From: Spirochaetota bacterium
GTDB taxonomy: Bacteria; Spirochaetota; Spirochaetia; DSM-27196; SLST01
Assembly: GCA_048624115.1 (NCBI GenBank)
Contig: JBMCTC010000001.1
Coordinates: forward strand, 1-44,818
DNA: 44,818 nt
Direction: 5' to 3'
Every line of letters starts with the position of its first letter. Position 1 is the first letter of the stretch. The translations under genes and the position numbers were made by a program. The notes under the pieces were generated by a model, which had not been told where the DNA came from, searched no databases, and saw only the letters and a program-made list of their open reading frames with translations. Shown here piece after piece: positions 6,690-43,011 of this stretch.

Positions 6690-6815
6690 GCTTCGAATCG
6701 TAGGCCGGTTTCCGAATTCGCGAAAGCGACGGATTCCACGATGGTAGTGTCGAAATCGAAGGCAGTCTCGCCATTTCCGTCACTTCCGGGTACGATCCGA
6801 GCCAGAGGCCCATGC

Positions 6816-8543: not shown

Positions 8544-8640
8544 TCACATAACGACGCTGCCCGGACGGGACTCGGCCCAGGGCACCTGTGCTCCGCCGCG
8601 GGCTTTCGAACCGACGGCCCGCGGAGTATCTTGAGTCGTG

Positions 8641-10233
8641 ATGCATGCCTACATACTCACAAATGGGACGATTCTCACCATGGTGTCTGGCCGACCGGAA
8701 GCCGAGGCGCTCCTGGTCACCGGCAACGAGATCAAGGCGGTGGGCACGCTCGCAGCGTGTCGTGCAGCCGCTCCGGCGGCAACTGAGATCGACCTCGGGG
8801 GACGGGTGGTCGTTCCCGGGTTCAACGACGCACATCTGCACATGGTGCACGCCGGCGCTCAGGAGCAGCGGGTTCTGCTGAGTGGGCTCTCGAAGTCGGA
8901 GATTCTCGCGCGCCTGCGCGAGGCTGCAGCGGCAATGCCTGAGGGAGAACTACTCACCGCCTACGGGTGGGACTACGAGAGCTGCCCCGATCCTCACCTA
9001 CGAGATTTGGACGAGGCATTTGGTGATCGGCCGGTGATCCTGACCCAGTTTTCCGGCCACGGCGCGTGGCTCAACTCAGCGGGACTAGCGCATGTCGGCA
9101 TTTCGAAGGACACGCCCGACTGGGATTACGGGGGCACGAACAAGGACGCTGCGGGAGAACTGATCGGGACGCTTCGGGAGCCCGCGTATGCTCCCGGATA
9201 CAAGGCATGGCTCGAGTCCGAGAGCAAGAATCCCGAGCGAACGCTGGCGCACCTCGAGGCGGCAATGCGGCTCTTTGCTCGACTAGGGATTACGAGCGTT
9301 GGCGACAACACCTGGTACCCGTGGCACCTGGAGGCCATTGCCCAACTTGCGCGAGAGCGTCGCCTGACCGTTCGCGTAACAAGCTGGAGCCGAGGGGACC
9401 TTCCCGATCTCGAGGCAGAGTTTGACGCCCACGAGTATGAGGGTCGATGGCACCGTCGCGGACTCTCGAAGTTCTTTTTGGATGGAGCCTTCTCGACCTA
9501 CACCGCGTGGCTCTCCGAGCCGTACGCAGACCGGCCCGACACGCGGGGCTCGGGCATGGACCCCGAGGCGATAGAACGCTTCCTCGAGGCCAAGACCCGT
9601 GACGGCCGCCAGACCGCGAGCCACTCGATTGGCGATGCAGCAACCGCCGCGTATGTCCAAGCCGCTGCGGCCGTGGCCAAGCGTCACGAGCTTGCACCTT
9701 TGCGCCACCGCATCGAGCACGGTCAGCTTATTCACTCGAGCGATATCGACCGTATGGCAGAGCTCGGCCTGCTCGTCTGCGCCCAACCCCACGCTGCCGC
9801 CGAACCCGAGAAGGACAAGCGCCTTCTCGGCGAACCGCGCGCCAAGCGGGCCTACCCCTTCCGGTCACTGCTTGACGCGGGCGTTCCCCTCTCGTTTAGC
9901 TCAGACTTCCCGGGTGAAGTCACCATCGACCCGATGTTCGGAATCCACCTCGCGGTCAACCGCCCGGGTGGCGAGGCAATCTCGGTAGAAGAGGCGCTCT
10001 ACGCCTACACCGCAGGCGGCGCTTACGCGGAGTTCGCGGAAGATTACAAAGGCAAACTCGCGCCGGGGTACGTGGCGGATCTCGCCGTGCTCTCGGCAGA
10101 CCCGCGCGCAGTAGCGCCCGAGAAGCTTCGCGACGTCTGCGTGGATGCGACGATTGTAGACGGCGCCCTGGCTTACGAGCGCGAAGGGGCGGCGGGCCTG
10201 GGCTCGGTGCCACACGCCGGGCCGGGGGCTTAG
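8641..10233 (+). CDS. Metal-dependent amidohydrolase (Amidohydro_3 / YtcJ-like)
   Basis: Motifs VVPGFNDAHLHMVHAG (HxH metal site), RIEHGQLIH and SFSSDFPGE. ATG at 8641; the track ORF starts 3 nt earlier at a GTG. Confidence 0.85.
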   Translation: MHAYILTNGTILTMVSGRPEAEALLVTGNEIKAVGTLAACRAAAPAATEIDLGGRVVVPGFNDAHLHMVHAGAQEQRVLLSGLSKSEILARLREAAAAMPEGELLTAYGWDYESCPDPHLRDLDEAFGDRPVILTQFSGHGAWLNSAGLAHVGISKDTPDWDYGGTNKDAAGELIGTLREPAYAPGYKAWLESESKNPERTLAHLEAAMRLFARLGITSVGDNTWYPWHLEAIAQLARERRLTVRVTSWSRGDLPDLEAEFDAHEYEGRWHRRGLSKFFLDGAFSTYTAWLSEPYADRPDTRGSGMDPEAIERFLEAKTRDGRQTASHSIGDAATAAYVQAAAAVAKRHELAPLRHRIEHGQLIHSSDIDRMAELGLLVCAQPHAAAEPEKDKRLLGEPRAKRAYPFRSLLDAGVPLSFSSDFPGEVTIDPMFGIHLAVNRPGGEAISVEEALYAYTAGGAYAEFAEDYKGKLAPGYVADLAVLSADPRAVAPEKLRDVCVDATIVDGALAYEREGAAGLGSVPHAGPGA

Positions 10234-10340
10234 CAGCAAGGAGCGGTGTGGCACCGCGGCCGGGGTTTTAGCAGCAGGCAGCGGTGTCGCACCGCGGGCC
10301 GGGGGTTTAGCAGCAGGCAGGGTTGTCGCACCGCGGCCGG
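10222..10340. repeat. Imperfect tandem direct repeat, 3 copies of ~38 bp
   Basis: Copies at about 10222-10259, 10260-10297 and 10298-10336 (ccggggNtttagcagcaRgSagcggtgtSgcaccgcgg). Each holds the mini-hairpin GCGGTG-nnn-CACCGC. Copy 1 contains the amidohydrolase stop codon. Confidence 0.75.
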
Positions 10341-10346
10341 CGAGCG

Positions 10347-12221
10347 TTACTGCGGCATGAGATCCCAGTACTCTTGCACCGAGGCGTTTCGTTTACAAAG
10401 CTCGATGATCTTCTGACCAAGCGGATTTAGGTCCGGGGTCTCGAACTGTTCGAGTTCCTTTAGAAAGAAGTCGTAGAGTATTTTCGCGCCCTTGTCGTAT
10501 CCTTCGATCCCGACTTCCGGCTGATCGTGGACCCGCAAGAAGCCGTGGGGCATCTCCTGGCCGTTTACGCGCAGGCCGGGCAGGCTGTAGCCGAGCAGTG
10601 AACAGCGCGAATCGTCGAGTTGGCCGGGTCGGAAGCGCAAGCCACCACGGCGTGCCATCCACTCGCGGGCGAGCCACTCTCCGGTAAAACCGACCTTGTA
10701 GGCACCGATGTACTGGTTCGGGATGAGCACGTAGCGCGTTCCAGGAGTCTGCTCGATCAGCTCAAGCAGCAGGTTCGCCTGGCGGACCATTGTGCCTGTA
10801 GCGAATGGCCAGTAGCTCCCCACCCCCTCACTGGTAAGACCCTCGGCGGTGACGATGCTCGGATTTGAGTGACCGCGAGGCGCCACGAGTCGCCAGAGCC
10901 AGGCAAGCGCAGGCGGCAGCACGTGTAGCATACCGAGAATCCCGTAGTTGGGCGTCTCTCGGGTACACGGCGGGGTGCGAACACCAAAGCTCCGAACATC
11001 GACATGCACCGGTTCATTGACCGTATTCTCGATAAAGTGCCGCGGCATAATGACTCGAGGGTTGGGGCACGGCTTGCCCGGCGCATCCTGAATATGCTCC
11101 CAGAGCAGAACCGTAGAGCCGGCCTTCCCATCGATGTTGAGGAAGATGAGCGGCTCTGGAGGATTGATGCAGAGCTTCTCAAGCGAGGGCTCGGTACCAT
11201 ACTCGGTCAGGTGGTCGACACGGAGAAACCAGCCGGCCTCCGCGTCCTCAATCACAAGCCGGCGCGAGCCCTTCTGAAGACTCGGATGCGCGAGCGCCAT
11301 GTCGTCGGTGATAGGATGCAGCTCGCATGTGTCAAAGAGCTCGATAAACAGGCGGTCGCCGGTAACGGTGTTCTCACCGAGGCGAATGCGACCATCGGGC
11401 TCGCGGTGCATCGCCTGGGTCATCTCGCTCTTTCCCCCGCCGCTCGCACCCTCGTGCATGATTACGTACTCGTTGTCGTAGGGCGTGATCAGGCGCACCG
11501 CGGAGCTGTGTAGCGTTGTCCATCCTTCGCGCTCGCCAATGGTGAGCAGGATACCGTACACGCCCTTCTTCGCGCTTGGCCCCGGGTAGAGGTTGTAGCT
11601 AAAGAGCTCGTGCATTCCGGGTAGACGATTGTGAATGACGAGCTGTCGCCCCTCGAAGTGAGTATGCCGGAACGGCGGTGCGAGGTAGATAACGGCCTCA
11701 GGCGTAAAGCCGTCGGGCACCTTGTCCTTCGGGATAAACCCCTGGAGGTCTGCCAGGCCGGCAACAAAGAAACCTGCATTCTCGGGTGCAACGAGCAGCG
11801 TCGGGCATCCGGCGTTTTTGTCGCCGCTCATGAATGGAAGGACGATCAGACGGTCCTGCTCGGCAAGCCACTCGAAGGTCTCTGTTCGCGTCTTGTCGAA
11901 AGAGGTGCCGAATCGATCGGCGTAACGGCGCTTGTCCGTGGGCTGATCGTCGGCGATCACCATTGCCTCTGGATCGCGGCGTCGCATGTACGGCTCGACG
12001 TAATTTACAGCAGCCCCGTTCCTGCAGCGTTCAACGGTTGCCTCCACGACGCGTCCTTTGCCCGGAACGTCGTAGGCCACCTCGACCACGTCGGCGCCTG
12101 GATCGAAGAACGCCAGCTCGAGCAAATGCGCTCGGCTTTCAGGAATGATTATCTCGGTCTTCTCGAAAACCTTCTGCAGTTCATCTGGAACGTTGAGTAT
12201 CGATAGCTCGACTGCGCTCAT
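10347..12221 (-). CDS. Uncharacterised DUF4914-like protein with an HprK/PEPCK-type P-loop
   Basis: 624 aa, soluble. The P-loop HEGASGGGKSEMTQ matches the GxSGxGKSE signature of HPr kinase/PEPCK-like folds. The family name DUF4914 is from memory and was not searched. Confidence 0.7.
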   Translation of the reverse strand: MSAVELSILNVPDELQKVFEKTEIIIPESRAHLLELAFFDPGADVVEVAYDVPGKGRVVEATVERCRNGAAVNYVEPYMRRRDPEAMVIADDQPTDKRRYADRFGTSFDKTRTETFEWLAEQDRLIVLPFMSGDKNAGCPTLLVAPENAGFFVAGLADLQGFIPKDKVPDGFTPEAVIYLAPPFRHTHFEGRQLVIHNRLPGMHELFSYNLYPGPSAKKGVYGILLTIGEREGWTTLHSSAVRLITPYDNEYVIMHEGASGGGKSEMTQAMHREPDGRIRLGENTVTGDRLFIELFDTCELHPITDDMALAHPSLQKGSRRLVIEDAEAGWFLRVDHLTEYGTEPSLEKLCINPPEPLIFLNIDGKAGSTVLLWEHIQDAPGKPCPNPRVIMPRHFIENTVNEPVHVDVRSFGVRTPPCTRETPNYGILGMLHVLPPALAWLWRLVAPRGHSNPSIVTAEGLTSEGVGSYWPFATGTMVRQANLLLELIEQTPGTRYVLIPNQYIGAYKVGFTGEWLAREWMARRGGLRFRPGQLDDSRCSLLGYSLPGLRVNGQEMPHGFLRVHDQPEVGIEGYDKGAKILYDFFLKELEQFETPDLNPLGQKIIELCKRNASVQEYWDLMPQ

Positions 12222-12331
12222 AAAACCCCCATGAGATACGCATATTTATGCGAATACCATGCAGTTTAGTGGAAAAAGATACACGTGGGAAGGGGCTACA
12301 TGAGGATAGGTCGATGATGTCTCGCCGGGCG

Positions 12332-12721
12332 CTACGCCCGAAGCGCGCTGATCTGTTCTCGGATTGCGGCGATCTGAACTCGCAGGAGTGTCTGGTTCGC
12401 GGTCACGCGAGCGAGCACCTCGAGCTTCGTTCGCTCGAGCGCGGCTCGTAACTTGGGAATGCGTTCTGCGCCGGTCGGATCCTTCGCTCGATAGAGCGCC
12501 TCGAGTGGACCCGCCACTTGTTCGAAGGTCTCGATCTCTGCGAGGATTTGCTGCTCGAGCTCGATGTGAAAGGCAAGCCGCTCCTCGGCCGTCTCGTTGT
12601 CGCTTCCTGCTTCGAGTACGCGAAGATACTCGGCAAAGCGAGCGCGTTGCCGCTCTACGGTGGCCTTGAATCGGCGGAGGATCGCGATGCGCTCCTCTCG
12701 TTCGTCGTTGGTAATGCTCAT
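12332..12721 (-). CDS. Hypothetical all-helical coiled-coil protein, linked to fliS
   Basis: 129 aa, rich in E/R/L/A with heptad character. It starts 28 nt downstream of the fliS stop on the same strand. No recognisable motif. Confidence 0.65.
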   Translation of the reverse strand: MSITNDEREERIAILRRFKATVERQRARFAEYLRVLEAGSDNETAEERLAFHIELEQQILAEIETFEQVAGPLEALYRAKDPTGAERIPKLRAALERTKLEVLARVTANQTLLRVQIAAIREQISALRA

Positions 12722-12749
12722 TCTTTTTTAATTGTCGGCGCGAACGGCG

Positions 12750-13175
12750 CTATCCAGCAATATTAAAGCCGCCCTGCCCTCGACCTTCAACGGAAGTTCG
12801 CTCTACGATCTGCGCCCATGCGCCACGCAACTCGGCAAGCATGCGGCGAACCTCTTTCAACGGGGCGCTATCCTTTTGGACGTTGCCCTCCATCAGTTGC
12901 TTGTTGAAGTAGCGGTAGAGCCCGTAGAGTGACGGAGCGATGTCGCCGCCCTGTTCGAAGTCGAGGCTTACGGTAAGCTCGGTGATGATATCCTGCGCCT
13001 TGAGAATCGAGTTGCTGATCTCGTCGTACTTGCGAGATGAGGAGTCGAGTAGCCGCGCGGCGTGGTCAATCTGACGAACTGCTTCGTCGTACAGCATGAT
13101 TATCATCTTGCCACCACTTGCTGTTCGGACCGAAGTTTCTTTGTAAGCGCTGACTGAACTGGCTCTATACGACAT
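12750..13175 (-). CDS. fliS: Flagellar export chaperone FliS
   Basis: 141 aa. AYKETSVRTASGGKMIIMLYDEAVRQI..ILKAQDIITELTVSLDFEQGGDIAPSLYGLYRYFNKQL is the canonical FliS four-helix pattern. Confidence 0.9.
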   Translation of the reverse strand: MSYRASSVSAYKETSVRTASGGKMIIMLYDEAVRQIDHAARLLDSSSRKYDEISNSILKAQDIITELTVSLDFEQGGDIAPSLYGLYRYFNKQLMEGNVQKDSAPLKEVRRMLAELRGAWAQIVERTSVEGRGQGGFNIAG

Positions 13176-13220
13176 GAATACTCCCTTCTGATTTTCGTCA
13201 ACTTTTTATTTTAACTTGAG

Positions 13221-15593
13221 TCATCGCGCGTTCTCCAACAGAGTAGAGACGGGCACCACCTCGTAGCCCTGTGCCAGAAGCCCATTGATCAGCACGTCAA
13301 GGCGCTGGAAGAGGTAATCCTCCCTCCCGCCCGATGCGCTCGGGGCTACGCCGATCTCCATCGAAACGATTGAACCGGGACGCTTTACGTCAAGAATGCG
13401 TTCAACGAGATCTGCGCTCGGCATGTACAGCTCGTTGAGCCCGTTCCGAGTGATTCGAGGAACCCAGTCCAAGCTGTCGACATCACGTCCGACGTAGATG
13501 TAGTTCGCCTCTTGGCCCCACGATACGATATCGTCGCTGACGAAGTAGTAGGGCGCGTGCCAAATGAGCGAGAGCTCACGGCCCGTCGCGGCGAAGTACT
13601 CATCCTCGTTCCTGCTCAATCCCTCCAGAATGAAGTCTCGCGTGATTTCGAATCTACGATCGGCCATATCGAAGTAGGCAAAGAAGAGCGAGCCCACCTC
13701 GTGTCCAGCCGTCGCTATCTCCGATAGCGCCGCGGGGTGTCTACGAATAAACTCCCCATTTACGAAGAACGTAGCACGCAAATCGTAGGCTGCCAGGGTC
13801 ATCAGGATTTCCGTAAGGCCCTCAACGCTATCGATAGCGTTAAAGACAAGTGAGACCTCGCGCTCACGCGTCCGCGAGCCATGTGTGAAGTAGTCGAGGT
13901 CAACCGGCTCGTCCACGATTGGCAGGGGCTCGTAGCGTGCCACCGGCGGCGGAAAGAGGCGACTCGTGCCGACGCCCCGGGATCGCCGGACCATCACGAT
14001 GTTGCGATAGCTGCCGCTGTTCAGCGTCTCGAGAAATACACGGAAGTCGGTAGCCGCGACTTCTTTGCGGCTCTCGAGAGGCTGCTCGGTGGGCTCCCAG
14101 TACCCGCCGTTGATCGTTCGAACAAAGCGGTAGTTCTCGCCGTCGGAGGTGGCGAGAATCTCGCCCTGATCCGAGACCGAGTGATCGTCGGTTTGGGAAA
14201 GGGCCAGGAAGGAACGCTCCCCTGAAACCGAGACTATCTCGAGCTTCGCGACGCCGCCGACGAGTAGGCGATCGTCATCGACCCAAACGGCATGCAGTGG
14301 ATTGTTCACTGCAACGCTTCGGAGTTCCTGAAAGGTTGCTGCGTTCCGGAAGCTAATGCCCGTCTCTGAGAGCAGAGCAAGGGTCCGTTCATCGGGCGAG
14401 AGCAACGCGGATCGGGTGCCTATCTGCCCTACCCGCTCGAAGCTGAGATCGCGAACACCCGGGACCACGCGAAGCCGAAAGATCTCAGAGTCGTCTGTGT
14501 CGTTGGTAACGTTGCCGGCGAGAATGGTCACGTCCCCGAGGTCACTCCAGGCGACCTGCTCGATACGAGTGTTGCGCGGCAAGAAGAGAGCCGGAAGCGA
14601 GAGGATCTGGCCCTCGTCGGCAAAGTCGTCGGTGTCCAGGAAGAGCGCAAAGAGATTGCGCCCGCCATTGTTCAGGAGCAGACTCTCGCCGGTAGGTGCA
14701 ATCCAGAAGCTGTCAAAGTTCCCATCAAACTCAAACGGCAACTTACCCCGAATCGTGCCTACCTGCAGGAGGCCTGAGTAGAGCGAGCGGGTGAAGAACT
14801 CCGACCCCGCGACCTGATACACGAGGGTTCCAGACACGTAAAAGAGCGTGCCGTCGGGGGCCCAACGGACGTTGTTGATCGTGCCTGGACCGAGCCGGCG
14901 AAAACTCTCGGTAAGCAGTCGGTCCCGCTCATACTGGGCGATCGAAAAGTAGTAGACCTCTTGGCCCCGAGCGTAGACAAAGAAGCGTGAGTCGGGCGAC
15001 CAGCGAGCGGGCACCTCCTGGGTAGAGAGCTCGACACGCTCGGCAACTACATGCGTCGTGCTTCCGTCGCTCCGGGCGAGAATGAGCCGTCCGTAGGCCG
15101 CGCTCGTCGGTTCGAGCACGGTGAGATAGCGACCGTCGGGACTCGAGACGGTGGGGACTAATCGACCTGTCTCTACTTGTGAGCCCCGGAGGAAGCCCGG
15201 CGAGCCTGCTACCGGCTCGAATGCTCCGGTCTCTACATCTCCGCGAAAGACACCAAAACGATTCTGGATTTGCACCGTTCCGAGTTCCGGCAGATAGTTC
15301 ATGAGCTCCGGATAGTAGGTGAGTTGGGTAAGCGGCGCATCGTCTAATATGTCGCCACCGGCAACAGCCGCTTCGCTAAAGGTTGCGGGAACGCCTGAAA
15401 GATCCGCTGCAAAGAGGGCGGCATACGCTCCGGTGCCGGGTGCCTCGGTTACCGCCTCGAAAAGCAGGGTATCGTCCTCGGAGAGGTCGAGCGTGCCAAA
15501 GGTGGTTTCGGCAGAGAGCGTGAGCGCGACAAGCAATGCAACAGTAATGCTACAATATCGTTTCAAATCAGCCTCTACCATGAATCTCGTCAC
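13221..15593 (-). CDS. Secreted TolB-like beta-propeller fused to a polysaccharide deacetylase (CE4/NodB) domain
   Basis: 790 aa with a signal/anchor segment (CSITVALLVALTLSA). Propeller-type motifs recur (SSPDGRYL, WSPDSRFF, WAPDGTLF, LSPDERTL). The C-terminal NodB region contains ATFFVNGEFIRRHPAALSEIATAGHEVGS. Confidence 0.8.
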   Translation of the reverse strand: MTRFMVEADLKRYCSITVALLVALTLSAETTFGTLDLSEDDTLLFEAVTEAPGTGAYAALFAADLSGVPATFSEAAVAGGDILDDAPLTQLTYYPELMNYLPELGTVQIQNRFGVFRGDVETGAFEPVAGSPGFLRGSQVETGRLVPTVSSPDGRYLTVLEPTSAAYGRLILARSDGSTTHVVAERVELSTQEVPARWSPDSRFFVYARGQEVYYFSIAQYERDRLLTESFRRLGPGTINNVRWAPDGTLFYVSGTLVYQVAGSEFFTRSLYSGLLQVGTIRGKLPFEFDGNFDSFWIAPTGESLLLNNGGRNLFALFLDTDDFADEGQILSLPALFLPRNTRIEQVAWSDLGDVTILAGNVTNDTDDSEIFRLRVVPGVRDLSFERVGQIGTRSALLSPDERTLALLSETGISFRNAATFQELRSVAVNNPLHAVWVDDDRLLVGGVAKLEIVSVSGERSFLALSQTDDHSVSDQGEILATSDGENYRFVRTINGGYWEPTEQPLESRKEVAATDFRVFLETLNSGSYRNIVMVRRSRGVGTSRLFPPPVARYEPLPIVDEPVDLDYFTHGSRTREREVSLVFNAIDSVEGLTEILMTLAAYDLRATFFVNGEFIRRHPAALSEIATAGHEVGSLFFAYFDMADRRFEITRDFILEGLSRNEDEYFAATGRELSLIWHAPYYFVSDDIVSWGQEANYIYVGRDVDSLDWVPRITRNGLNELYMPSADLVERILDVKRPGSIVSMEIGVAPSASGGREDYLFQRLDVLINGLLAQGYEVVPVSTLLENAR

Positions 15594-34408: not shown

Positions 34409-36154
34409 TCATTTCACGTACACTGGGCGCGACGTGTAATGGGTATGGAGATACTTGTGACTCTTCTCGCTCAGAGGCTTATCGAGGAACTCCTTGTAGA
34501 GAGCTTGGATTGCAGGGTTCTGATGGCTGCACCGGATCTCTTGATTGACATCGTCCTGGTAGAGCGCCGCGATGCGCTTCTCACGAATCGCGTCGGTGCC
34601 TCCATAGGGCTGGCCACCGCCGGCAACACAACCGCCGCGACATGCCATGACCTCGATAAAGTGGTACGGAGGCTCCTTACCCTCGGCCAAAGCCGCCTTT
34701 ACCTCATCCAACACAAGTTTAATGTTCTTCATGTTGTGGGCGACGGCGACGCGGACTTCCTTGCCCGCGATCTCCAACGTGGCTCTCTTGATGCCCTCGA
34801 GTCCCCGGATTGCCTTGAACTCAACCTCTTCGAGCTCCTCACCCGTGATCAGGTGATATCCCGTCCGAAGCGCCGCTTCCATGACACCGCCGGTTGCGCC
34901 AAAGATTGTACCGGCACCGGTGTAGATGCCAAGCGCGGAGTCGGCCTCTTCATCGGGTAGACTCTCAAATGTGATGCCGGCCTGCTTGATCATGCGGCTC
35001 AGCTCACGCGTTGTGATTACCACGTCAATGTCCTGAGTACCCGAGGAGTACATGTTTTCGTCCCGGACGATCTCGTACTTCTTTGAGGTACACGGCATGA
35101 CGGAGGCCATGAAAATATCTTCCGGCTTCTTGCCGATCTTCTGCGCGTAGTAGGTCTTTACCATTGCGGCCATCATCATCTGCGGGCTCTTCGCAGTCGA
35201 GAAGTGGGGGATCATCTCGGAGTAGTACTTCTCCATGTAATCGACCCAGCTCGGACAACACGTAGTAATGAGCGGGAGGGGACCATGGCCGTTGATCACC
35301 CGCTCTACGAACTCGCTTCCTTCTTCCATGATGGTGAGATCCGCCGCGAAGTTGGTGTCAAACACCGTGTCAAAACCGAGCCGCCTGAGGGCAGCGTAGA
35401 TCTTGCCGGTCACAATCGAGCCGGGCTCCATGCCAAACGCCTCGCCGAGCGCGACCCGGACCGCCGGAGCGATCTGCACGACGGTGTGCTTCTTCTCGTC
35501 GCGCACCGCGTCGTATACCTGGTTTGTGTCGTCCTTCTCGAAAATCGCACCGACCGGGCAGTGCGCCGAGCACTGACCACACTTGATGCAGGGACTCTCA
35601 TTGAGGGCAATGTCGCCGGCGGGAGCCATGCGAGTACCGTCTCCCCGCCCAATGAACTCGAGCGCCCACACGTCTTGCAGCCCCTGACACACCTTTACGC
35701 ATCGACCACAGCCAATGCACTTCTCCGGGTTCAACACGATCGAGGGAGTCGATGTGTCGGCGGGAATGTCCTTGACGATACTCTCGTACGGCTGCTCGCG
35801 GATGCCGAAATCCGCGGCGAGCTTTTGCAGCTCACACGTCCCGTTTCTCGGGCAGGTGAGACACGTGTTCGGGTGCGTCGAGAGAATTAGCTCAATCACG
35901 GTTCGCCGAACCTCTTGAAGCTCGGGGTCGTGCGTAACGACCTTCATTCCCTCGGTCGCCTCGAGCGTACACGCTCGGATGAGCTTCCGGCTCCCTTCGA
36001 CCTTGACCACGCAGATGCCACAGGCGGCCCAAGCGGGAAGGTCCGAGTGATAACAGAGTTTCGGGATTGCTACATTCGCAGATGCCGCTGCATCGAGAAC
36101 GTTGGTCCCTTCGTTGACTGAAACTGGAATTCCGTTTATTTCAAGATTTACCAT
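34409..36154 (-). CDS. hydA: [FeFe]-hydrogenase catalytic subunit (HydA/HndD type, group A3-like)
   Basis: H-cluster motifs TTCCPSW, VMPCTSKKYE and EVMACRGGCVAGGGQP. N-terminal 2Fe-2S and multiple 4Fe-4S Cys motifs (CIGCGRCVKVC, CIKCGQCSAHCP). ATG at 36154 (MVNLEINGIPV) after AAGGAG. Confidence 0.95.
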   Translation of the reverse strand: MVNLEINGIPVSVNEGTNVLDAAASANVAIPKLCYHSDLPAWAACGICVVKVEGSRKLIRACTLEATEGMKVVTHDPELQEVRRTVIELILSTHPNTCLTCPRNGTCELQKLAADFGIREQPYESIVKDIPADTSTPSIVLNPEKCIGCGRCVKVCQGLQDVWALEFIGRGDGTRMAPAGDIALNESPCIKCGQCSAHCPVGAIFEKDDTNQVYDAVRDEKKHTVVQIAPAVRVALGEAFGMEPGSIVTGKIYAALRRLGFDTVFDTNFAADLTIMEEGSEFVERVINGHGPLPLITTCCPSWVDYMEKYYSEMIPHFSTAKSPQMMMAAMVKTYYAQKIGKKPEDIFMASVMPCTSKKYEIVRDENMYSSGTQDIDVVITTRELSRMIKQAGITFESLPDEEADSALGIYTGAGTIFGATGGVMEAALRTGYHLITGEELEEVEFKAIRGLEGIKRATLEIAGKEVRVAVAHNMKNIKLVLDEVKAALAEGKEPPYHFIEVMACRGGCVAGGGQPYGGTDAIREKRIAALYQDDVNQEIRCSHQNPAIQALYKEFLDKPLSEKSHKYLHTHYTSRPVYVK

Positions 36155-36164
36155 CGTTTGCTCC

Positions 36165-37952
36165 TTAAGCGCGAAGTACCGCGTCAAACTTGCACGAGGC
36201 GTAGCATTCGCCACACTTGATGCACTGCGACTGATCGATCACATGCGGCTGACGACGTTCACCGGTTATGCAGTTGACCGGACACTTGCGAGCACACACA
36301 CCGCAACCGATGCACTTATCCACGAGAATCTCGAAGCGAAGTAGATCCTTACACTTCCCTGCCGGGCAGAGATCGTCGTTAATGTGTGCATCATACTCGG
36401 CTCGGAAGTACCTGAGCGTACTCAGGATCGGGTTTGGCGCCGTCTGGCCGAGGCCACAGAGACTCGCACGCTTCATCGCGACGCCAATCTGCTCCATCTT
36501 CTCGATATCTTCGGGAACGCCATTCCCCTTGCTGATCCGATCGAGAATGTTGTAGAGCTTTCGCCCGCCGACCCGACACGGCGCGCACTTTCCGCAGCTC
36601 TCTTCGACGGTAAAGTCGAGGTAGAACTTGGTCACATCGATCATACAGTCGGTCTCGTCCATAACGATCATGCCGCCCGAACCCATGATTGAGCCGAGCT
36701 CCTGCAGATGCTCGTAGTCAATCGGGACGTCGAGATGATCCGCCGTGATAACGCCGCCCGAGGGCCCACCGGTCTGCACCGCCTTGAACGACTTCCCGTC
36801 GGGAATGCCGCCGCCAATATTAAAGATGATGTCACGAAGCGTGGTGCCCATGGGCACTTCGACCAGACCGGAGTTCTGGATCTTGCCGGTCAGTGCGAAG
36901 ACCTTGGTGCCCTTGCTCTTCTCGGTGCCGATCTTGCTGAACCACGCGGCGCCACGAGAGATAACCACCGGAATGTTGGCAAGCGTCTCAACATTATTAA
37001 TGACAGTGGGCTTTTGCCAGAGACCTTTGACCGAAGGAAAGGGAGGTCGAGGCCGAGGCATTCCGCGCTCGCCTTCGATGCTCGCGAGGAGCGCAGTCTC
37101 TTCGCCACATACAAACGCACCGGCGCCGAGTCTGATCTCGATCTCGAAGTCAAAGCCCGAACCCAGGATGTCTTTGCCCAACAAACCGTACTCAGTTGCC
37201 TGAGCGATGGCCTTCTTGAGGCGATTAATCGCAAGTGGATATTCGGCACGAATGTAGATAAAGCCCTTGCTCGCGCCGATTGTTTTCCCGGCTATGGCCA
37301 TGGCCTCGAGCACGGAGTGCGGGTCACCCTCGAGCACGCTTCGGTCCATGTAAGCACCCGGGTCGCCCTCATCTGCATTACAAACGACGTACTTTTGATC
37401 GGCTTCTTCGGCCTTTGTGAGATTCCACTTCATCCAGGTCGGGAAACCCGCGCCACCGCGCCCGCGCAGGCCGGCAACTTTGAGTTCTTCGATCACCTGA
37501 TCAGGTGTGAGGTCGTAGAGCACCTTCTCGAGCGCTACGTACCCATCGCGAGAGATGTACTCAGAGATCTCCTCAGGGTCGATAAATCCGCAGTTCCGAA
37601 GCACGACCCGGAACTGCTTTTGGTAGAAGCTAATGTCGTCTACGCGCGCGTGCTCTTTGCTCTGCTCTTCTTTGTAGAGGAGTCTCTTGACCGGGCGCCC
37701 TTTAACGATGTGTTCTTCGATAAGCTCGCGCGCATCCTTGGGATCAACCTCCACATAGAAGCTCTCCTCGGGGAGGATCTTGACGATCGGGCCCTGTGCG
37801 CAGAAGCCAAAGCACCCGGTTTTGACGACCTGCACGGTGGTCGCGAGCTCGTGGTGCTCGACTTCGCGCTGCAGCGACTTGTAGATATCGTCGGCTTTGT
37901 TGCTCTCGCATCCGGTTCCGCCACAAACCAGAACGTAGTGTTGGTATGCCAT
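36165..37952 (-). CDS. hydB: NuoF-like flavoprotein subunit of a bifurcating-type hydrogenase (HydB/HndC)
   Basis: N-terminal thioredoxin-like 2Fe-2S (VCGGTGC..TGCFGFCAQGP), NADH/FMN site LRGRGGAGFPTWMKW, ESCGKCAPCR, and two C-terminal ferredoxin motifs (CIGCGVCARKCP, CIKCGECYASC). Confidence 0.95.
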   Translation of the reverse strand: MAYQHYVLVCGGTGCESNKADDIYKSLQREVEHHELATTVQVVKTGCFGFCAQGPIVKILPEESFYVEVDPKDARELIEEHIVKGRPVKRLLYKEEQSKEHARVDDISFYQKQFRVVLRNCGFIDPEEISEYISRDGYVALEKVLYDLTPDQVIEELKVAGLRGRGGAGFPTWMKWNLTKAEEADQKYVVCNADEGDPGAYMDRSVLEGDPHSVLEAMAIAGKTIGASKGFIYIRAEYPLAINRLKKAIAQATEYGLLGKDILGSGFDFEIEIRLGAGAFVCGEETALLASIEGERGMPRPRPPFPSVKGLWQKPTVINNVETLANIPVVISRGAAWFSKIGTEKSKGTKVFALTGKIQNSGLVEVPMGTTLRDIIFNIGGGIPDGKSFKAVQTGGPSGGVITADHLDVPIDYEHLQELGSIMGSGGMIVMDETDCMIDVTKFYLDFTVEESCGKCAPCRVGGRKLYNILDRISKGNGVPEDIEKMEQIGVAMKRASLCGLGQTAPNPILSTLRYFRAEYDAHINDDLCPAGKCKDLLRFEILVDKCIGCGVCARKCPVNCITGERRQPHVIDQSQCIKCGECYASCKFDAVLRA

Positions 37953-37954: not shown

Positions 37955-38353
37955 CTACTCCTTTCCCTCGACGATGTCGGCAGCCGGTCGATCAAAGACA
38001 TGCTCATCTACGAGCGTCTTGTTGATGATGTGTGAGCGCACGATCTGGGAGGCCACTTTCGGGGTTACCTTGCCGTAGATCACCGTCGGCATGTCGGGCA
38101 TGCGCACCTCGACGGTGGGCTCGGCGTGATCGAGGCCGAGACTGCCGGTCTGCCTGAGGCTAACGTTCGTCAGACCGTTCTGCTCGAGTTCGCTCATAAA
38201 GGCGGTAAGGGTGTCCTTTGCGCCGGCGGCGATGCCGCTCGTTCCCATTCCAACAATGACCTGGACGCTCTTGTTGTCGGCGTCACGCATGTCGAGTTCT
38301 TTTCGCTTCTCTTCACGAAGCTTCCGCAGATCCTCAAGGCTCATCTTTGCCAT
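37955..38353 (-). CDS. HndB-like thioredoxin-fold small subunit, cysteine-free
   Basis: 132 aa. VIVGMGTSGIAAGA..RQTGSLGLDHAEPTVEV parallels the 2Fe-2S thioredoxin-like ferredoxin pattern seen in the HydB N-terminus, but the protein has no Cys at all. Confidence 0.75.
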   Translation of the reverse strand: MAKMSLEDLRKLREEKRKELDMRDADNKSVQVIVGMGTSGIAAGAKDTLTAFMSELEQNGLTNVSLRQTGSLGLDHAEPTVEVRMPDMPTVIYGKVTPKVASQIVRSHIINKTLVDEHVFDRPAADIVEGKE

Positions 38354-38886
38354 AGTTCTTCCTCCTGACTTCTCACGTACTCCGTGATCAGCTGTAGTGC
38401 TTCTACTGTGGCCAGATCTTCGAAGATCTCGGCCAACTCGGTTCGTCTGATGGTGTACTCTGATCCATCGCGAACCCGTTCGATTTCCACTTCGTCGGGC
38501 CCCTCGCAGGTAAGCGCCAATGTAAACGTTGAAACAAGGTCGCCTGTCGGCGGCAGGTCAAGGTGGTCGGCAGGAACCTCAAAGACGACCTTCGTGCCGC
38601 CGCCCGGTTCACTTGTAAGCTCGTAGCGTCCGCCAACACTCGAGACGGTCTGAATCAGGAACGGAAGTCCTAATCCGACCTTCCTCCCAGGATGCTTGGC
38701 CCCGTCGGTGTAGAAGGGATTGACGGCGCGCGCGCGTTCGTCGGCGCCCATTCCTTTTCCGTTGTCCTCTACGGAGACGCGCAGGCGAGCATCACGCTCG
38801 TGCCACCGCACATCAATCCGAGAGCTTTCCGCCGCCACCGCGTTCTGGAACAGATCCGTCAGCAGCTCGGCAAGCGAAAAGTGCAC
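38341..38886 (-). CDS. Stand-alone GHKL (histidine-kinase-like) ATPase inside the hydrogenase operon
   Basis: N-box LFQNAV, G1 box EDNGKGM and G2 box GLGLPFL. No DHp/His-phosphotransfer domain. The GTG at 38886 follows GGAAGGAG and lies 2 nt after the hydC stop. The track ORF extends further 5' into hydC. Confidence 0.75.
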   Translation of the reverse strand: MHFSLAELLTDLFQNAVAAESSRIDVRWHERDARLRVSVEDNGKGMGADERARAVNPFYTDGAKHPGRKVGLGLPFLIQTVSSVGGRYELTSEPGGGTKVVFEVPADHLDLPPTGDLVSTFTLALTCEGPDEVEIERVRDGSEYTIRRTELAEIFEDLATVEALQLITEYVRSQEEELWQR

Positions 38887-38888
38887 GC

Positions 38889-39368
38889 CTACTCCTTCCG
38901 GTGCTCCGCAATGATATCGGGAAGTTTTGCCTTCTGGACCTTTCCGTACACCTGATCGTTTACCGTCAACACCGGCGCAAGGCCACAACAACCCACGCAG
39001 CGCACCGCCTCGACGCTAAACAGGCCGTCGGGAGTTACCTCGTTAATGCCGACACCGAGCAGGTTTTCGATCTCCTGGATCAGGTCCTCGCCGCCCTTGA
39101 GGTAGCAGGCGGTTCCCATGCAGACTGAGATCTTGTTCTTCCCCGGCTTCTCGAGCTTAAAAAAGTGATAGAACGTTATGACGCCGTAAATCTTGGCGAG
39201 AGGCACTTCGATCAGCTTTGCGAGCTCGAGTGCAACGCCGCGGGGTATGTAGCCGTTCTCTTCCTGCACGCGGTGCAGGATCATAATGAGGTTGCCCGGC
39301 TTATCTCGCCACTCTTCGACAAAGCTGAGAATGTCCTCTGATAGCGTTGTCTCTTCCGTTACTGGCAT
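38889..39368 (-). CDS. hydC: NuoE-like 2Fe-2S subunit of the hydrogenase (HydC/HndA)
   Basis: Motifs CMGTACYLKG and VRCVGCCGLAP. 159 aa. First gene of the operon, with a GGAGG Shine-Dalgarno. Confidence 0.9.
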   Translation of the reverse strand: MPVTEETTLSEDILSFVEEWRDKPGNLIMILHRVQEENGYIPRGVALELAKLIEVPLAKIYGVITFYHFFKLEKPGKNKISVCMGTACYLKGGEDLIQEIENLLGVGINEVTPDGLFSVEAVRCVGCCGLAPVLTVNDQVYGKVQKAKLPDIIAEHRKE

Positions 39369-39397
39369 ATGACCTCCATAGATCCGTTTCGGAGTGG

Positions 39398-39426
39398 ATG
39401 GTACAAGAAATGTGATCGTCTGACAA
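39398..39426 (-). promoter_or_regulatory. Candidate promoter of the hydrogenase operon with an overlapping quasi-palindrome
   Basis: Minus strand TTGTCA - 17 nt - TACCAT, about 30 nt upstream of the ATG at 39368. The plus-strand quasi-palindrome TGTGAtcgtcTGACA (39411-39425) overlaps the -35/spacer. Confidence 0.3.
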
Positions 39427-39482
39427 GTTTAGTTCACGGAGTCAGCCTCAGTCAAATCACAATCACATTGAACTCGCAGTGT

Positions 39483-39491
39483 TGATATAAT
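39483..39491 (+). promoter_or_regulatory. Candidate extended -10 promoter element for rex
   Basis: TGATATAAT (TGnTATAAT) about 50 nt upstream of the rex ATG. No good -35. Confidence 0.3.
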
Positions 39492-39542
39492 AACAGAGAT
39501 TGGGTACGATACAAGTAAATTATTGTGAATTAAGGAGCAATA

Positions 39543-40214
39543 ATGGAGGATAAGATCCACAGACCGATGGTACTCCGGTTGGCTCGGTACCTTCGGGTAT
39601 TAGAAAAACTCAAGGGCCTTGGTTTTGTCAAAGTCTTCTCGAACAATCTCGGCGACGCGATTGGCGCTACGCCCGCGGTTGTCCGGAAGGACTTCTCGGT
39701 GATCGGCATCACGGGGAACAAGCGGGGTGGCTACGTCATTGACTCGCTGATCGAACGCCTTGTCGAGGTGCTCGGCAAGAACGAGACGGAGAAGGTTGTT
39801 GTTGTAGGCGTCGGCCGCATTGGAAGCGCCCTCATCAACTACCGTGAGTTTGTTCGAGAGGGCATTCGCGTCGTAGCGGGCTTCGACACGAATGAGTCGC
39901 TGGTCAATCGAGACCTGGCAATTCCGCTTCTCCCAATGGTGGAGTTTCCCAAGTTCGTGAGCGAGAGCAATATCGAAGTTGCCGTCCTGGCGGTGCCCGA
40001 CTCGGTGGCAACAAGCGTTTTTGAGCTGATGATTGATGCGGGCATTCGAGGCGTGCTCAACTTCACCTCGGTGGAACTGAAATGTGGTGCCGCCTGCCAC
40101 GAGCGTGGCTGCTCCGAAGAGTGCACCGTTCAAAACGTAAATATCGGCCTCGAGATCGAGAATCTCTTCTATCTCATTCGATTGAAGCGCGAAACCGAAG
40201 AGATCTCCGTATAG
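39543..40214 (+). CDS. rex: Redox-sensing transcriptional repressor Rex
   Basis: N-terminal winged helix (RLARYLRVLEKL..VFSNNLGDAIG..AVVRKDFS) and the Rossmann loop VVVVGVGRIGSAL. 223 aa. Confidence 0.9.
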   Translation: MEDKIHRPMVLRLARYLRVLEKLKGLGFVKVFSNNLGDAIGATPAVVRKDFSVIGITGNKRGGYVIDSLIERLVEVLGKNETEKVVVVGVGRIGSALINYREFVREGIRVVAGFDTNESLVNRDLAIPLLPMVEFPKFVSESNIEVAVLAVPDSVATSVFELMIDAGIRGVLNFTSVELKCGAACHERGCSEECTVQNVNIGLEIENLFYLIRLKRETEEISV

Positions 40215-41138
40215 ATGAGCACGTTGCCGCTCGATGCCGGAGAACCTGCGTTTGTCACGGAGCTGATCTATAGGCTCAAGATCAAGGACGCGATGACCTC
40301 GGCGCTCTACACCGCGACACCTGACGAGAGCCTGCGCTCGCTCCAGATCAGAATGAAAGAAGCGCAGATTACCGGCGTGCCGGTCGTTGCCGGTACAAGG
40401 ATTCTCGGGATCGTGAGCATGGACGATGTAATCCGCGCACTTGATGAAGGCTACATCGACGAGCCGGCGGGCGATCACATGAGTAAGCAGCTGATCGTGC
40501 TCGAAGACGACATGCCCCTGAGCTTTGGCATCTCCTACATGGAGAAGTACCGCTTTGGTCGCTTTCCCGTGCTGAACAAGGAAAAGGAACTCGTCGGAAT
40601 CATCACGAGTAGGGACATACTCACCACCCTTCTCATGGAGATGAATCGAGAGGTTGAACGAAGAGAGCAACTGCAATCTGAAGTTCGTACCAACGAGAGC
40701 TTCTACCGAGAGTACCGGGTACGCAAGTTTGATTTCGAGCATTCCGGCAAGGCAACCGGCGAAGTTAAGATCGAGCTCAAGCAGATGGGGCTCCCGCCGA
40801 AGTTCATTCGGCGCGTTGCCGTGGCGAGTTACGAGCTCGAGATGAATGAGGTCGTACACTCCGAGGGCGGATCGTTGCAGGCGCGGATTACGCCCGAGCA
40901 GGTAGAGATCGTTGCAAAGGACACCGGACCGGGAATTCCCGATCTCGAGAAGGCGCTTACCGAGGGCTACTCCACCGCCACGGAGTGGGTTCGCTCGCTC
41001 GGGTTTGGAGCGGGCATGGGATTGCCAAACGCTCGCCGCGCCGCCGACGAGTTTCGAATCTCGAGCGACGAGAAGGGAACCACCGTCAGATGCTTGTTTC
41101 ACATTCCGCAAACAGGGGGAACCGATGAAGGCGCATGA
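40215..41138 (+). CDS. CBS-pair domain fused to an RsbW/SpoIIAB-type GHKL serine-kinase-like domain
   Basis: Two CBS motifs (ITGVPVV..ILGIVSMDDVIRAL; FGRFPVLNKEKELVGIITSRDIL). C-terminal HATPase region IVAKDTGPGIPD..GFGAGMGLPNARR. The ATG directly abuts the rex stop (TAGATG). Confidence 0.8.
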   Translation: MSTLPLDAGEPAFVTELIYRLKIKDAMTSALYTATPDESLRSLQIRMKEAQITGVPVVAGTRILGIVSMDDVIRALDEGYIDEPAGDHMSKQLIVLEDDMPLSFGISYMEKYRFGRFPVLNKEKELVGIITSRDILTTLLMEMNREVERREQLQSEVRTNESFYREYRVRKFDFEHSGKATGEVKIELKQMGLPPKFIRRVAVASYELEMNEVVHSEGGSLQARITPEQVEIVAKDTGPGIPDLEKALTEGYSTATEWVRSLGFGAGMGLPNARRAADEFRISSDEKGTTVRCLFHIPQTGGTDEGA

Positions 41139-41460
41139 AGTAGCCGAACTACTCGATGCTGAAATACTCTGCGGCTCGCCGGAGGTCGAGTGTCGCGCCG
41201 GCTACAGCTCAGACCTCTTGAGTGACGTCATGGCAAACGCAGAAGAGGGCTCAGCCCTCATCACCATACAGGCTCACGCGAACACCGTCGCGGTGGCAAG
41301 CCACGTCGACCTGCCGCTGATCGTGGTTTGTAACGATCGTCCCGTACCCGAGGAGATGCTCGAGGCGGCACGTGAGAACAACATCGCGATCTGCCGAACC
41401 TCCAAAGACCAGTTTTCGAGCGCGGGGCTCCTCTACGCGAGGTTGCAGACCGGTCAATGA
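41125..41460 (+). CDS. DRTGG-domain protein
   Basis: 111 aa. SDLLSDVMANAEEGSALITIQAHANTVAVASHVDLPLIVVCNDRPVPEEMLEAARENNIAI matches the DRTGG-type small domain as I remember it. The ATG at 41125 overlaps the upstream gene by 14 nt. Confidence 0.65.
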   Translation: MKAHEVAELLDAEILCGSPEVECRAGYSSDLLSDVMANAEEGSALITIQAHANTVAVASHVDLPLIVVCNDRPVPEEMLEAARENNIAICRTSKDQFSSAGLLYARLQTGQ

Positions 41461-42167
41461 CCGTCCATGCGGACATTCACCTTCATAGCTGCTTGAGCCC
41501 GTGCGGGGACCTGAGCATGTCGCCGCGAGCGCTCGTAGAAGCCGCGGTCCGCGCCGGCCTCTCGTTGATTGCCCTTACCGACCACAACACTGCGCGAAAC
41601 GCCCCCGCCTTCGCCGCGGCGTGCAGCGAAGCGGGGATCGTTCCCCTTTTTGGTGCCGAGGCTACGAGTAGCGAAGAGGCACATGTGCTCGGCATCTTTG
41701 GGGACCTCGAATCGGGCCTCGAGTTTGGCGAACGCCTCTACGCGACGCTTCCGGAGTTTGCGGTCGACCCCGCGCGTTACGGCGATCAGGTGGTTGTCGA
41801 CCCGGACGAGATGGTAATCGAAGTGCTCGCAAAGGGGCTTATCTCCGCATCGACCTATTCGCTGCGTCAACTCGGCGAGCTCATTCACGAGCTCGGTGGT
41901 TTGTTTATTCCCGCCCATATAGACCGGTCTTCGTTTAGCATCTGGTCCCAGCTCGGATTTCTACCGCCGGACAGTTACGATGCGGTGGAGATCTACTCGA
42001 ACTCGAATCGGATCGCATACGGCGGCTACACGGCAATCTGCAACTCCGATGCTCATTTCCCTGCCGACGTCGCACGCCGTCACTTCTCGTTTGAGGCGGA
42101 TGAGCCGAGCTTTCGCGGTCTCCAACACGCGATCGCGGACGGCGCAATTGCCCGCCACGGAGTGTAG
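41457..42167 (+). CDS. PHP-family metal-dependent phosphoesterase
   Basis: HADIHLHSCLSPCGD and IALTDHNT are PHP motifs I and II; PAHIDR is a later motif. ATGA overlap with the DRTGG gene stop. Confidence 0.8.
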   Translation: MTVHADIHLHSCLSPCGDLSMSPRALVEAAVRAGLSLIALTDHNTARNAPAFAAACSEAGIVPLFGAEATSSEEAHVLGIFGDLESGLEFGERLYATLPEFAVDPARYGDQVVVDPDEMVIEVLAKGLISASTYSLRQLGELIHELGGLFIPAHIDRSSFSIWSQLGFLPPDSYDAVEIYSNSNRIAYGGYTAICNSDAHFPADVARRHFSFEADEPSFRGLQHAIADGAIARHGV

Positions 42168-42228: not shown

Positions 42229-43011
42229 ATGCGATGCCGACTCACCGTCCTCGTACTCACCTTCTCGTGCATAGGAGCCCTGGCTATGGCATCAGACGCA
42301 AACGCAGTGGAACTGGTCGACCGCCTCGGGATGATTGTCATACGGGGCACCGACGGCGAGAGTGCAGTCGAGAAAGCGGCTGCGGAAGCTCTCGAGGCGA
42401 TCGAGGCCGGTGGTGATCGCGCGTCGATCGAGGCGAACAAGCGCGCGATCCTCATGGCGCAGCGCAGCTTCTACCTAGGTTTTTTCCAACGAGGCGAGGG
42501 CAGAGAGCGCGAGGCCGAGCGTTTGTTCGAACGCGCCGCGGAAACAGCACGTGAAGCGGTACGAGAGCGCCCGACCTCGGAAGGAATGCGCGTACTCTCG
42601 GATGCGCTTCAGCAGTTGCTCGAGTTGCGGGGAAGTCTCTATCAGTTGTTGAACTTCAGGGCCGCGCGGGATGCGGCATTCGAGGCGATCGAGCTGGACA
42701 ACGAGAACCCGGCGGCGTATCTCGCTGCGGTGAGCTACTTGGCAACCGCCCCCGCTGCGGGCGGCGGGGATAAGGAAGAGGCGCAACGGTATCTCGATCG
42801 CGCCTCAGCCCTCTTGGCGGATCGTGACGATACGTCGAGCGTAATGAACCTCCGGTTTCTCGTGGCCGTCTGGCAGGCGCTCCTCGAGGCGAGCAAGGGC
42901 AACACGAACGCTTCATCGCGGGCGTTTGAACGCGCCGAGGAGATCTACCCGGAGAACTGGTGGCTTGCCGAGATGCGGGCCGCCGTTACAGACGATCTGC
43001 GGAACCAATGA
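42229..43011 (+). CDS. Secreted all-helical (TPR-like) hypothetical protein
   Basis: Signal peptide MRCRLTVLVLTFSCIGALAMA followed by Ala/Glu/Arg-rich helical repeats. No motif recognised. Confidence 0.6.
   Translation: MRCRLTVLVLTFSCIGALAMASDANAVELVDRLGMIVIRGTDGESAVEKAAAEALEAIEAGGDRASIEANKRAILMAQRSFYLGFFQRGEGREREAERLFERAAETAREAVRERPTSEGMRVLSDALQQLLELRGSLYQLLNFRAARDAAFEAIELDNENPAAYLAAVSYLATAPAAGGGDKEEAQRYLDRASALLADRDDTSSVMNLRFLVAVWQALLEASKGNTNASSRAFERAEEIYPENWWLAEMRAAVTDDLRNQ

Follow-up and report, generated by a model that had tools for sequence, protein, structure and literature searches.

What do the four closely packed genes that read away from an [FeFe]-hydrogenase operon in a spirochaete genome do, and upon which enzyme do they act? 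The window, as we call the whole stretch of DNA that was analysed, is 44,818 nucleotides long (contig JBMCTC010000001.1, positions 1 to 44,818, of assembly GCA_048624115.1, a metagenome-assembled genome of a Spirochaetota bacterium in 360 contigs and 88% complete). The genes in question encode the NADH/NAD+ sensor Rex, a protein in which a pair of CBS domains is fused to a GHKL ATPase domain (K1), a small DRTGG protein (DRT2), and a PHP-family phosphoesterase. When compared with related loci, these sequences identify the window genes as a CBS-sensor, Rex-coupled, split variant of a conserved cassette, DRT1-K1-DRT2-PHP, together with a second GHKL protein (K2). The cassette is a real, conserved, and uncharacterised regulatory gene set, and our best explanation of the whole, to which we give a probability of about 0.5, is a signalling cassette dedicated to bifurcating oxidoreductases of the NuoE/NuoF type. 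Its kinase/phosphatase mechanism is putative, and the confidence in that mechanism expressed in a sequence-only reading of this DNA needs correction. The features on which the argument turns are these.

39543-40214, + strand: rex, first gene of the operon (Pfam Put_DNA-bind_N and CoA_binding; NCBIfam Rex equivalog)
40215-41138, + strand: K1, a CBS-CBS-GHKL protein of 307 residues (Pfam CBS twice, HATPase_c, HATPase_c_2)
41125-41460, + strand: DRT2, a single-domain DRTGG protein of 111 residues (Pfam DRTGG, AlphaFold2 and Foldseek)
41457-42167, + strand: PHP-family metal-dependent phosphoesterase of 236 residues (Pfam PHP)
39369-39542, no strand assigned: divergent control region between hydC and rex, with promoter-like sites on both strands
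38889-39368, - strand: hydC, NuoE-like 2Fe-2S subunit (Pfam 2Fe-2S_thioredx, 159 bits)
38341-38886, - strand: K2, a stand-alone GHKL protein of 181 residues (Pfam HATPase_c, 68.6 bits)
37955-38353, - strand: HndB-like thioredoxin-fold protein of 132 residues (no Pfam match; weak NCBIfam 2Fe-2S ferredoxin matches)
36165-37952, - strand: hydB, NuoF-like FMN/NADH subunit (Pfam Complex1_51K, NADH_4Fe-4S, Fer4)
34409-36214, - strand: hydA, [FeFe]-hydrogenase catalytic subunit (Pfam Fe_hyd_lg_C at 315 bits, Fe_hyd_SSU, Fer2_4, NADH-G_4Fe-4S_3)

Gene calls and junctions were taken straight from the window sequence, and domains were assigned with Pfam, supplemented by NCBIfam. The TAG stop of rex (40212-40214) is followed without a gap by the ATG of K1 at 40215 (TAGATG), a 0-nucleotide junction that is also present in a genome of the same genus (L101). 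The ATG of DRT2 at 41125 overlaps the end of K1 by 14 nucleotides, and an ATGA overlap joins DRT2 to PHP, which starts at 41457. The hydC-K2-HndB-like-hydB-hydA operon lies on the opposite strand, divergent and 174 nucleotides from the rex operon. The sequence-only reading had described the same four genes and junctions, and both coordinates and junctions were confirmed in the sequence; its identification of Rex, a CBS pair with a SpoIIAB/RsbW-like GHKL domain, a DRTGG protein, and a PHP protein is backed by Pfam, NCBIfam, and fold searches, and the second kinase-like ATPase that it saw inside the hyd operon is K2, between hydC and the HndB-like gene. The unit of four genes that it proposed is real and coupled, but the system is larger: DRT1, which is encoded in trans here, and K2 belong to it too.

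That these genes form a set is clearest from the way in which they recur. We retrieved 80 loci, with an alignment of 41 K1 representatives, and searched their six-frame open reading frames with the window proteins; counts were taken over loci with enough flanking sequence on the relevant side. The 80 loci span at least 12 phyla and come from Spirochaetota, Kiritimatiellia/Verrucomicrobiota, Lentisphaerota, Chloroflexota, Atribacterota, Cloacimonadota, Fidelibacterota, Planctomycetota, Nitrospirota, Thermodesulfobacteriota, Acidobacteriota, and Ignavibacteria-type genomes. DRT2 is the next gene after K1 in 65 of 79 loci, PHP comes after it in 51 of 70, and DRT1 precedes K1 in at least 48 of 77, a figure that is a lower bound because the phmmer screen with a DRT2 query missed DRT1 in two loci (L008 and L010). 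HydA, or HydB plus HydC, is present in 27 of the 41 loci that have at least 7 kb on both sides, and the co-occurrence of the trio with HydABC operons, suspected in the sequence-only reading, is thereby seen across many phyla. The usual order, on one strand, is DRT1-K1-DRT2-PHP-(K2)-HydC-(K2)-F-HydB-HydA, where F holds the place of the HndB-like gene of the window. Three layouts were found: the cassette is divergent, as it is in the window's relatives, where it is headed by rex; it lies upstream on the same strand; or it is inserted between hydB and hydA, as in Cloacimonadota, Planctomycetota, Acidobacteriota, and Melioribacter. Because the layouts differ while the genes stay together, the linkage has outlived repeated rearrangement. 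It is far beyond chance.

The window departs from the usual order at one point, in that no DRT1 lies between rex and K1, which abut. Elsewhere Rex-DRT1-K1-DRT2-PHP is found in cis: in a genome of the same order (G227), in two spirochaete loci (L008 and L010), and in three further genomes (G164, G099, and G035). Loss of DRT1 in this lineage was considered and rejected, as the gene sits on another contig of the assembly.

contig C80, 2690-3034, + strand: DRT1, 114 residues, alone between a glucose/sorbosone dehydrogenase gene and msrB

All 12 of the 12 genomes of the genus carry exactly one DRT1 and one DRT2, on different contigs, and in two other fetched genomes of the genus DRT1 keeps one of its window-genome neighbours each (the dehydrogenase gene in one case, msrB in the other). 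Its retention in every member of the genus, even though it has moved off the operon, is good evidence that DRT1 is still needed and works in trans, and argues for a separate requirement for each small protein. The proteins DRT1 and DRT2 are paralogues (hhalign probability 99.9) that have in common a DL(L/M)SDV motif with an invariant Ser; a QAHxN motif is found in DRT2 and is absent from DRT1. In other genomes DRT1 is fused to K1 (P0188, P0192, P0198, P0221, and P0236). The N-terminal domain of these fusions has DL(L/M)SDV-type and LLTGL...RTA motifs and scores below the Pfam DRTGG threshold, so that database annotation undercounts the DRTGG domain. As read from these fusions, DRT1 is physically tied to K1 in other lineages. 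We note separately that contig C80 also carries a STAS-domain gene (84.9 bits, ~5148-5699, + strand) about 2 kb from DRT1.

To which enzyme, then, does the cassette belong? The sequence-only reading took the trio for a companion of [FeFe]-hydrogenase operons, and it does recur with HydABC; its constant partner, however, as judged from gene content and operon structure, is the NuoE/NuoF-type (HydABC/Bfu) bifurcating core rather than the hydrogenase subunit. In a sample of 201 Spirochaetota genomes, full-length K1 was found in 39 and a HydA-like match in 119. A HydB-like NuoF is encoded in 39 of the 39 K1-positive genomes, and because its background is 164 of 201, the association of K1 with NuoF at the level of whole genomes is uninformative. 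Ten full-length-K1 spirochaete genomes from three families say more, as nine of the ten are without any Fe_hyd_lg_C match. In two of those nine (L089 and L090), the cassette and K2 lie within a NuoE/NuoF operon whose terminal subunit is something other than a hydrogenase. At one locus it is an Nfn/Bfu-like protein with Fer2_4, Pyr_redox_2, and Fer4 domains, and at the other a molybdopterin formate dehydrogenase accompanied by a NuoF-GltD fusion. With Nfn-like and formate dehydrogenase operons thus carrying the cassette, a tie to [FeFe]-hydrogenase itself was rejected in favour of the NuoEF core.

The sensor end of the cassette is K1. Its two CBS domains score 84 bits with Pfam, and its GHKL part scores 33.2 bits with HATPase_c and 32.5 bits with HATPase_c_2 (cut-off 27.4). 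Across the 41 representatives E207, E209, and N211 (N box), D236, G238, and G240 (G1), and G263, G265, G267, and G269 (G2) are invariant, and the N, G1, and G2 ATP-binding boxes are, on this alignment, intact. Both CBS domains keep the motif G-h-h-S/T-x-x-D, which in CBS domains is the contact to the ribose and phosphate of adenosine ligands. More than 5000 homologues of K1 were found, and a search of 1.84 billion cluster representatives returned 77 clusters at E ≤1e-30 and 730 at E ≤1e-10. Among the best 150 cluster representatives, CBS is the commonest sensor form (70); 26 have K1 fused to Fer4, a degenerate Fe_hyd_lg_C, and the PF04060 Cys motif (FeS); at least six are DRT1-K1 fusions, in only two of which Pfam sees DRTGG; and the rest are mostly stand-alone K1 proteins of ~140 residues, or fragments. 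The window GHKL domain is 52-57% identical to the listed stand-alone proteins of that length (54% to Moorella P0388), and window K1 is 35-60% identical to the K1 genes of the 80 cassette loci.

In Moorella sulfitireducens the order is a 137-residue gene without a Pfam match in the DRT1 position, K1, an M2e-type HydS-like gene, DRTGG, PHP, HydC, K2, F, HydB, and HydA, and a second example of the same M2e-HydS-like cassette has no enzyme genes nearby. From these architectures the sensor part of K1 is interchangeable, being a CBS pair here and a PAS-less M2e HydS-like protein or domain in other lineages. Because the CBS pair occupies the place of the M2e HydS-like sensor, the missing HydS of the window is best read as a swapped sensor and not as a missing part. 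The description of this locus as a switch without a HydS sensor holds in cis; it does not hold further, in that the CBS pair takes the sensor's place and a PAS-type HydS is encoded elsewhere in the genome. Searches of the whole assembly with profiles for SpoIIE/PP2C, STAS, STAS_2, Sigma70_r2, and a second Fe_hyd_lg_C gave no match on the contig of the window (C1), which agrees with the earlier statement that STAS, sigma factor, PP2C, and HydS are all wanting there. An M2e ('group D', PAS-less) HydS, a putative sensory hydrogenase, is known from Thermoanaerobacter mathranii, where it lies upstream of the trimeric bifurcating HydABC (Land et al., PMC8163306). Clusters of the M2e-HydS kind share with the window a homologous GHKL protein of the K1 type, neighbours of the DRTGG, PHP, K2, and HndB-like kinds, and a position beside HydC/HydB/HydA. 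They differ from it in that the window has CBS fused to K1 instead of a HydS-like gene, has rex added as first gene, keeps DRT1 at another locus, and has its operon divergent from hyd rather than upstream.

For the two remaining cassette proteins, structure models support the assigned folds. DRT2 scores 26.6 bits with Pfam DRTGG, barely above the cut-off of 25.2, and its AlphaFold2 model (predicted local distance difference test, pLDDT, 96.7) has an alternating beta-alpha fold whose Foldseek neighbours are AF1212 (template modelling score, TM, 0.86), the DRTGG domain of the Clostridium perfringens CBS-pyrophosphatase, and the N-domain of HPr kinase; on this model, DRT2 has a genuine DRTGG fold. 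The PHP protein scores 45.7 bits, and its AlphaFold2 model (pLDDT 95.8) confirms the fold. Invariant in 30 orthologues are H8, H10, D42, H43, E68, H76, H154, D198, and H200, residues that we read as the complete metal-binding site. Directly 3' of the PHP gene lies an open reading frame of 260 residues (42229-43011, + strand) without a Pfam match.

How might these parts work together? We propose that the CBS pair would read an adenosine-type ligand, and with it the energy state of the cell, and that the ligand state would set the ATP-dependent activity of K1. K1 would act on the small DRTGG proteins in the manner of a partner switch, the leading candidate reaction being phosphorylation of the invariant Ser of DL(L/M)SDV, which the PHP enzyme would reverse. 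The HydBC core would thereby be controlled after translation, with K2 and the HndB-like protein as possible relays; a post-translational output aimed at the shared HydB/HydC core is the most likely one, because DNA-binding genes are absent from most loci and the cassette is in places found between structural genes. The fullest version of this proposal is a new type of partner switch, in which K1 (informed of adenylate through CBS, or of H2/redox through M2e HydS) and K2 phosphorylate DRTGG proteins, PHP is a protein phosphatase, and the phospho-state gates the NuoEF core of HydABC, formate dehydrogenase, and Nfn enzymes; in so specific a form it is tentative, and we would put the odds against it. 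The likeness to the SpoIIAB/SpoIIAA/SpoIIE and RsbW/RsbV/RsbU modules lies in a small GHKL domain of putative anti-sigma kinase type, whose nearest solved relative is SpoIIAB itself, small alpha/beta partners beside it, a phosphoesterase in the operon, and a possible dependence on ATP/ADP. Unlike those modules, the window has no sigma factor, its partners are DRTGG and not STAS proteins, and its hydrolase is PHP and not PP2C.

Several observations weigh against the proposed signalling cassette. The likeness of K1 to anti-sigma kinases is weak, both in the HATPase_c_2 score given above and in the best solved match to its GHKL part, the Ser-kinase SpoIIAB (1l0o), at E 0.002. The 50 listed structure matches of PHP include no protein phosphatase of the CpsB type, and the nearest of them act on nucleotides or nucleic acids. 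Among the 50 listed structural matches of DRT2 there is no STAS fold; these are DRTGG, HPr kinase N-domain, and Mur-ligase N-domain folds only, and the idea of a STAS-like DRTGG protein was rejected on that count. The invariant residues of DRT2 (D30, S33, T47, H51, and N53) follow strand ends in the secondary structure of the model, an arrangement that may equally suit a ligand pocket. Many HydA genomes are without the cassette (39 against 119 of the 201 sampled), which makes it an optional accessory. Finally, in relatives from Sphaerochaeta, Treponema, and Breznakiella, K1-DRT2-PHP stands as an orphan trio with unrelated genes around it, and the genomes of these relatives still have 3-8 H-cluster-domain matches.

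Some of this evidence suggested to us a circuit of a different kind, in which CBS and DRTGG would bind an adenine nucleotide or dinucleotide, PHP would hydrolyse that ligand (e.g., pAp, Ap4A, or short oligoribonucleotides) and so reset the switch, and K1 and K2 would serve as ATP-dependent conformational switches. Among the best structure matches of DRT2 is the regulatory part (CBS+DRTGG) of the C. perfringens pyrophosphatase (3l31, 3l2b), and NCBIfam aligns both the CBS part of K1 and DRT2 to the CBS-pyrophosphatase family. The strand ends at which the invariant D, S, T, H, and N of DRT2 lie in the model are where a ligand pocket would be. The nearest relatives of PHP, in sequence and structure, are EndoQ, RNase AM, and the 3',5'-bisphosphate (pAp) phosphatase Cv1693, with TM0559, BAD_1165, and polymerase PHP domains also among the nearest structures. 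In the CBS-DRTGG-CBS insert of family II CBS-pyrophosphatases a CBS pair and DRTGG likewise occur together, there as one regulatory unit, and DRT2 superposes on that DRTGG domain; in the window, however, CBS and DRTGG are on separate polypeptides, the output is a GHKL ATPase and not a pyrophosphatase, and the cassette DRTGG proteins have motifs of their own (QAHxN in DRT2, DL(L/M)SDV in both). The cassette holds no gene for making a dedicated messenger, and ligand binding alone would hardly account for two GHKL proteins with fully conserved ATP boxes. As for the hydrolase, to our knowledge the choice of substrate within the PHP family is not predictable from the fold. We regard this circuit as possible but doubtful. 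Protein phosphorylation is favoured over it by about two to one, because the system has two conserved GHKL proteins, because K1 has a likeness to anti-sigma kinases, and because no messenger-making gene is present in the cassette.

Rex raises the further question of whether the output is transcriptional. The protein scores 215 bits against the NCBIfam equivalog NF003996 (cut-off 138), and Pfam finds a winged-helix N-terminal domain and a Rossmann NAD(H)-binding domain. In the control region (39369-39542) five promoter-like sites were found where 1.2 were expected. On the rex side (+ strand) there is ATCACA-18-TATAAT at 39462-39491, and on the hyd side (- strand) TTGACT-18-TAAACT and TTGTCA-17-TACCAT. 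TCACA repeats at 39457-39467 overlap the first hexamer of the best rex promoter-like site, a TTGTGAA half-site adjoins the rex ribosome-binding site, and the TGTGA half-site and upstream TCACA(T) recur in the same places in six loci (L008, L009, L010, L032, L034, and L036). The canonical Rex operator TTGTGAA-N4-TTCACAA was not found in the control region at ≤3 mismatches, and its sole match in the window at that stringency falls within rex, at chance level. In 13 of 73 loci, which belong to spirochaetes, Kiritimatiellia, Victivallales, and Atribacterota, rex is the gene immediately before the cassette.

With the conserved TGTGA/TCACA half-sites overlapping the promoter-like sequences and rex translationally coupled to K1, here and in genomes of the same genus and the same order, K1 could be an anti-repressor that binds or phosphorylates Rex and so modulates the Rex-dependent expression of the hyd and rex operons at the level of transcription. 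We think this unlikely, since 60 of the 73 loci have no adjacent rex, several phyla have the cassette between hydB and hydA without any regulator gene, and the control region of the window is without the canonical operator. In the post-translational scheme that we prefer, Rex, being co-translated with the cassette, would be a separate, lineage-specific layer that sets transcription of both divergent operons by NADH/NAD+.

The two accessory genes inside the hyd operon bear on another alternative. The nearest solved relatives of K2 are catalytic domains of sensor histidine kinases, and K2 itself has no DHp domain. It occurs in 45 of the 80 related loci, always adjoining enzyme genes, and the HndB-like gene occurs in 43 of the 80, paired with K2, HydC, or HydB and usually beside K2 or hydB. 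This placement of K2 and the HndB-like gene between structural genes would suit a role in assembly, repair, or maturation, in which the GHKL ATPases and PHP build or reactivate the flavin/iron-sulfur core and no signalling is involved. Most HydA-carrying genomes in our sample are without the cassette, sensor domains of the CBS and HydS-like kinds are characteristic of signalling, and the trio persists far from such enzyme genes in some lineages; on these grounds we consider assembly very improbable. Two gene starts in this operon call for comment. The longest open reading frame of K2 (38341-38991, - strand) is overstated, the probable start being 38886, which gives 181 residues and is the same start as in the same-genus genome L101. 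That of hydA is overstated likewise, with a probable start at ATG 36154, and its homologues align from residue ~19-22.

The rest of the assembly encodes further components of the kinds just compared.

contig C47, in 2822-10343 (L006): PAS-type HydS of 581 residues (Fer4, Fe_hyd_lg_C, FeS, and PAS), in a second hydrogenase locus
contig C47: SpoIIE/PP2C phosphatase of 390 residues, overlapping the PAS-type HydS gene
contig C47, 3' of the PP2C gene: NuoF-fusion protein of 802 residues, then HydA of 761 residues with a C-terminal thioredoxin-like 2Fe-2S domain
contig C53, ~12070-13340, - strand: partner-switch trio of an RsbW-like HATPase_c_2 protein, a STAS protein, and a SpoIIE phosphatase

Since C47 encodes a PAS-type HydS, the absence of such a sensor is true of the window and not of the organism, and the C53 trio gives the organism a canonical partner switch besides the cassette. 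In Ruminococcus albus, by the account of Zheng et al. 2014 given in PMC5707799, a PAS-type HydS (group C) was proposed together with adjacent kinase, phosphatase, and Rex genes. That arrangement resembles the window in bringing a sensor, phospho-signalling, and Rex beside hydrogenase genes, and the genome of the window has its own PAS-HydS and PP2C on C47. Here, however, they are at another locus, next to the second hydrogenase, and no kinase gene adjoins them. Points particular to this genome or genus are the split that places DRT1 in trans and the presence of a PAS-HydS/PP2C locus in the same genome as the cassette.

Published accounts of such genes are operon listings. The map of the Halanaerobium hydrogeniformans operon Halsa_1862-1871, a further cluster of the M2e-HydS kind, names kinase-like and PHP genes (PMC4237134), and Cthe_0339 of Clostridium thermocellum, a kinase-like gene within the hyd operon Cthe_0338-0342, was set aside as a 'histidine kinase' (PMC3990059). 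In open-access text we found listings of this sort only, and no functional study, for DRTGG, PHP, anti-sigma, or CBS genes with hydrogenase; a survey of the Bfu family mentions no kinase, PHP, or CBS gene. The sequence-only reading knew of no biochemical characterisation, and none was found in the searchable literature. A supposed precedent, in which HfsC and HfsD of Thermoanaerobacterium saccharolyticum would be a kinase and a PP2C phosphatase, was dropped, as in PMC13277313 HfsB is identified with HydS, and HfsD is the hydrogenase HydA2.

In fermenters, syntrophs, and acetogens, HydABC/Bfu bifurcating enzymes determine how H2, formate, and NAD(P)H are balanced, and on the control of their activity nothing was found in the searchable literature. 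A cassette that accompanies the NADH-binding core across at least 12 phyla, with its sensor exchanged between HydS-like and CBS forms, is a concrete and testable candidate for such control. The CBS version may be the easiest form to reconstitute because it needs no metallo-cofactor maturation. Should the DRTGG partner switch prove true, it would give stand-alone DRTGG proteins their first known role and PHP enzymes a new one, in a circuit of partner-switch type. With it, the putative sensory [FeFe]-hydrogenases would also have their missing output path, which published work describes as unknown (PMC8163306).

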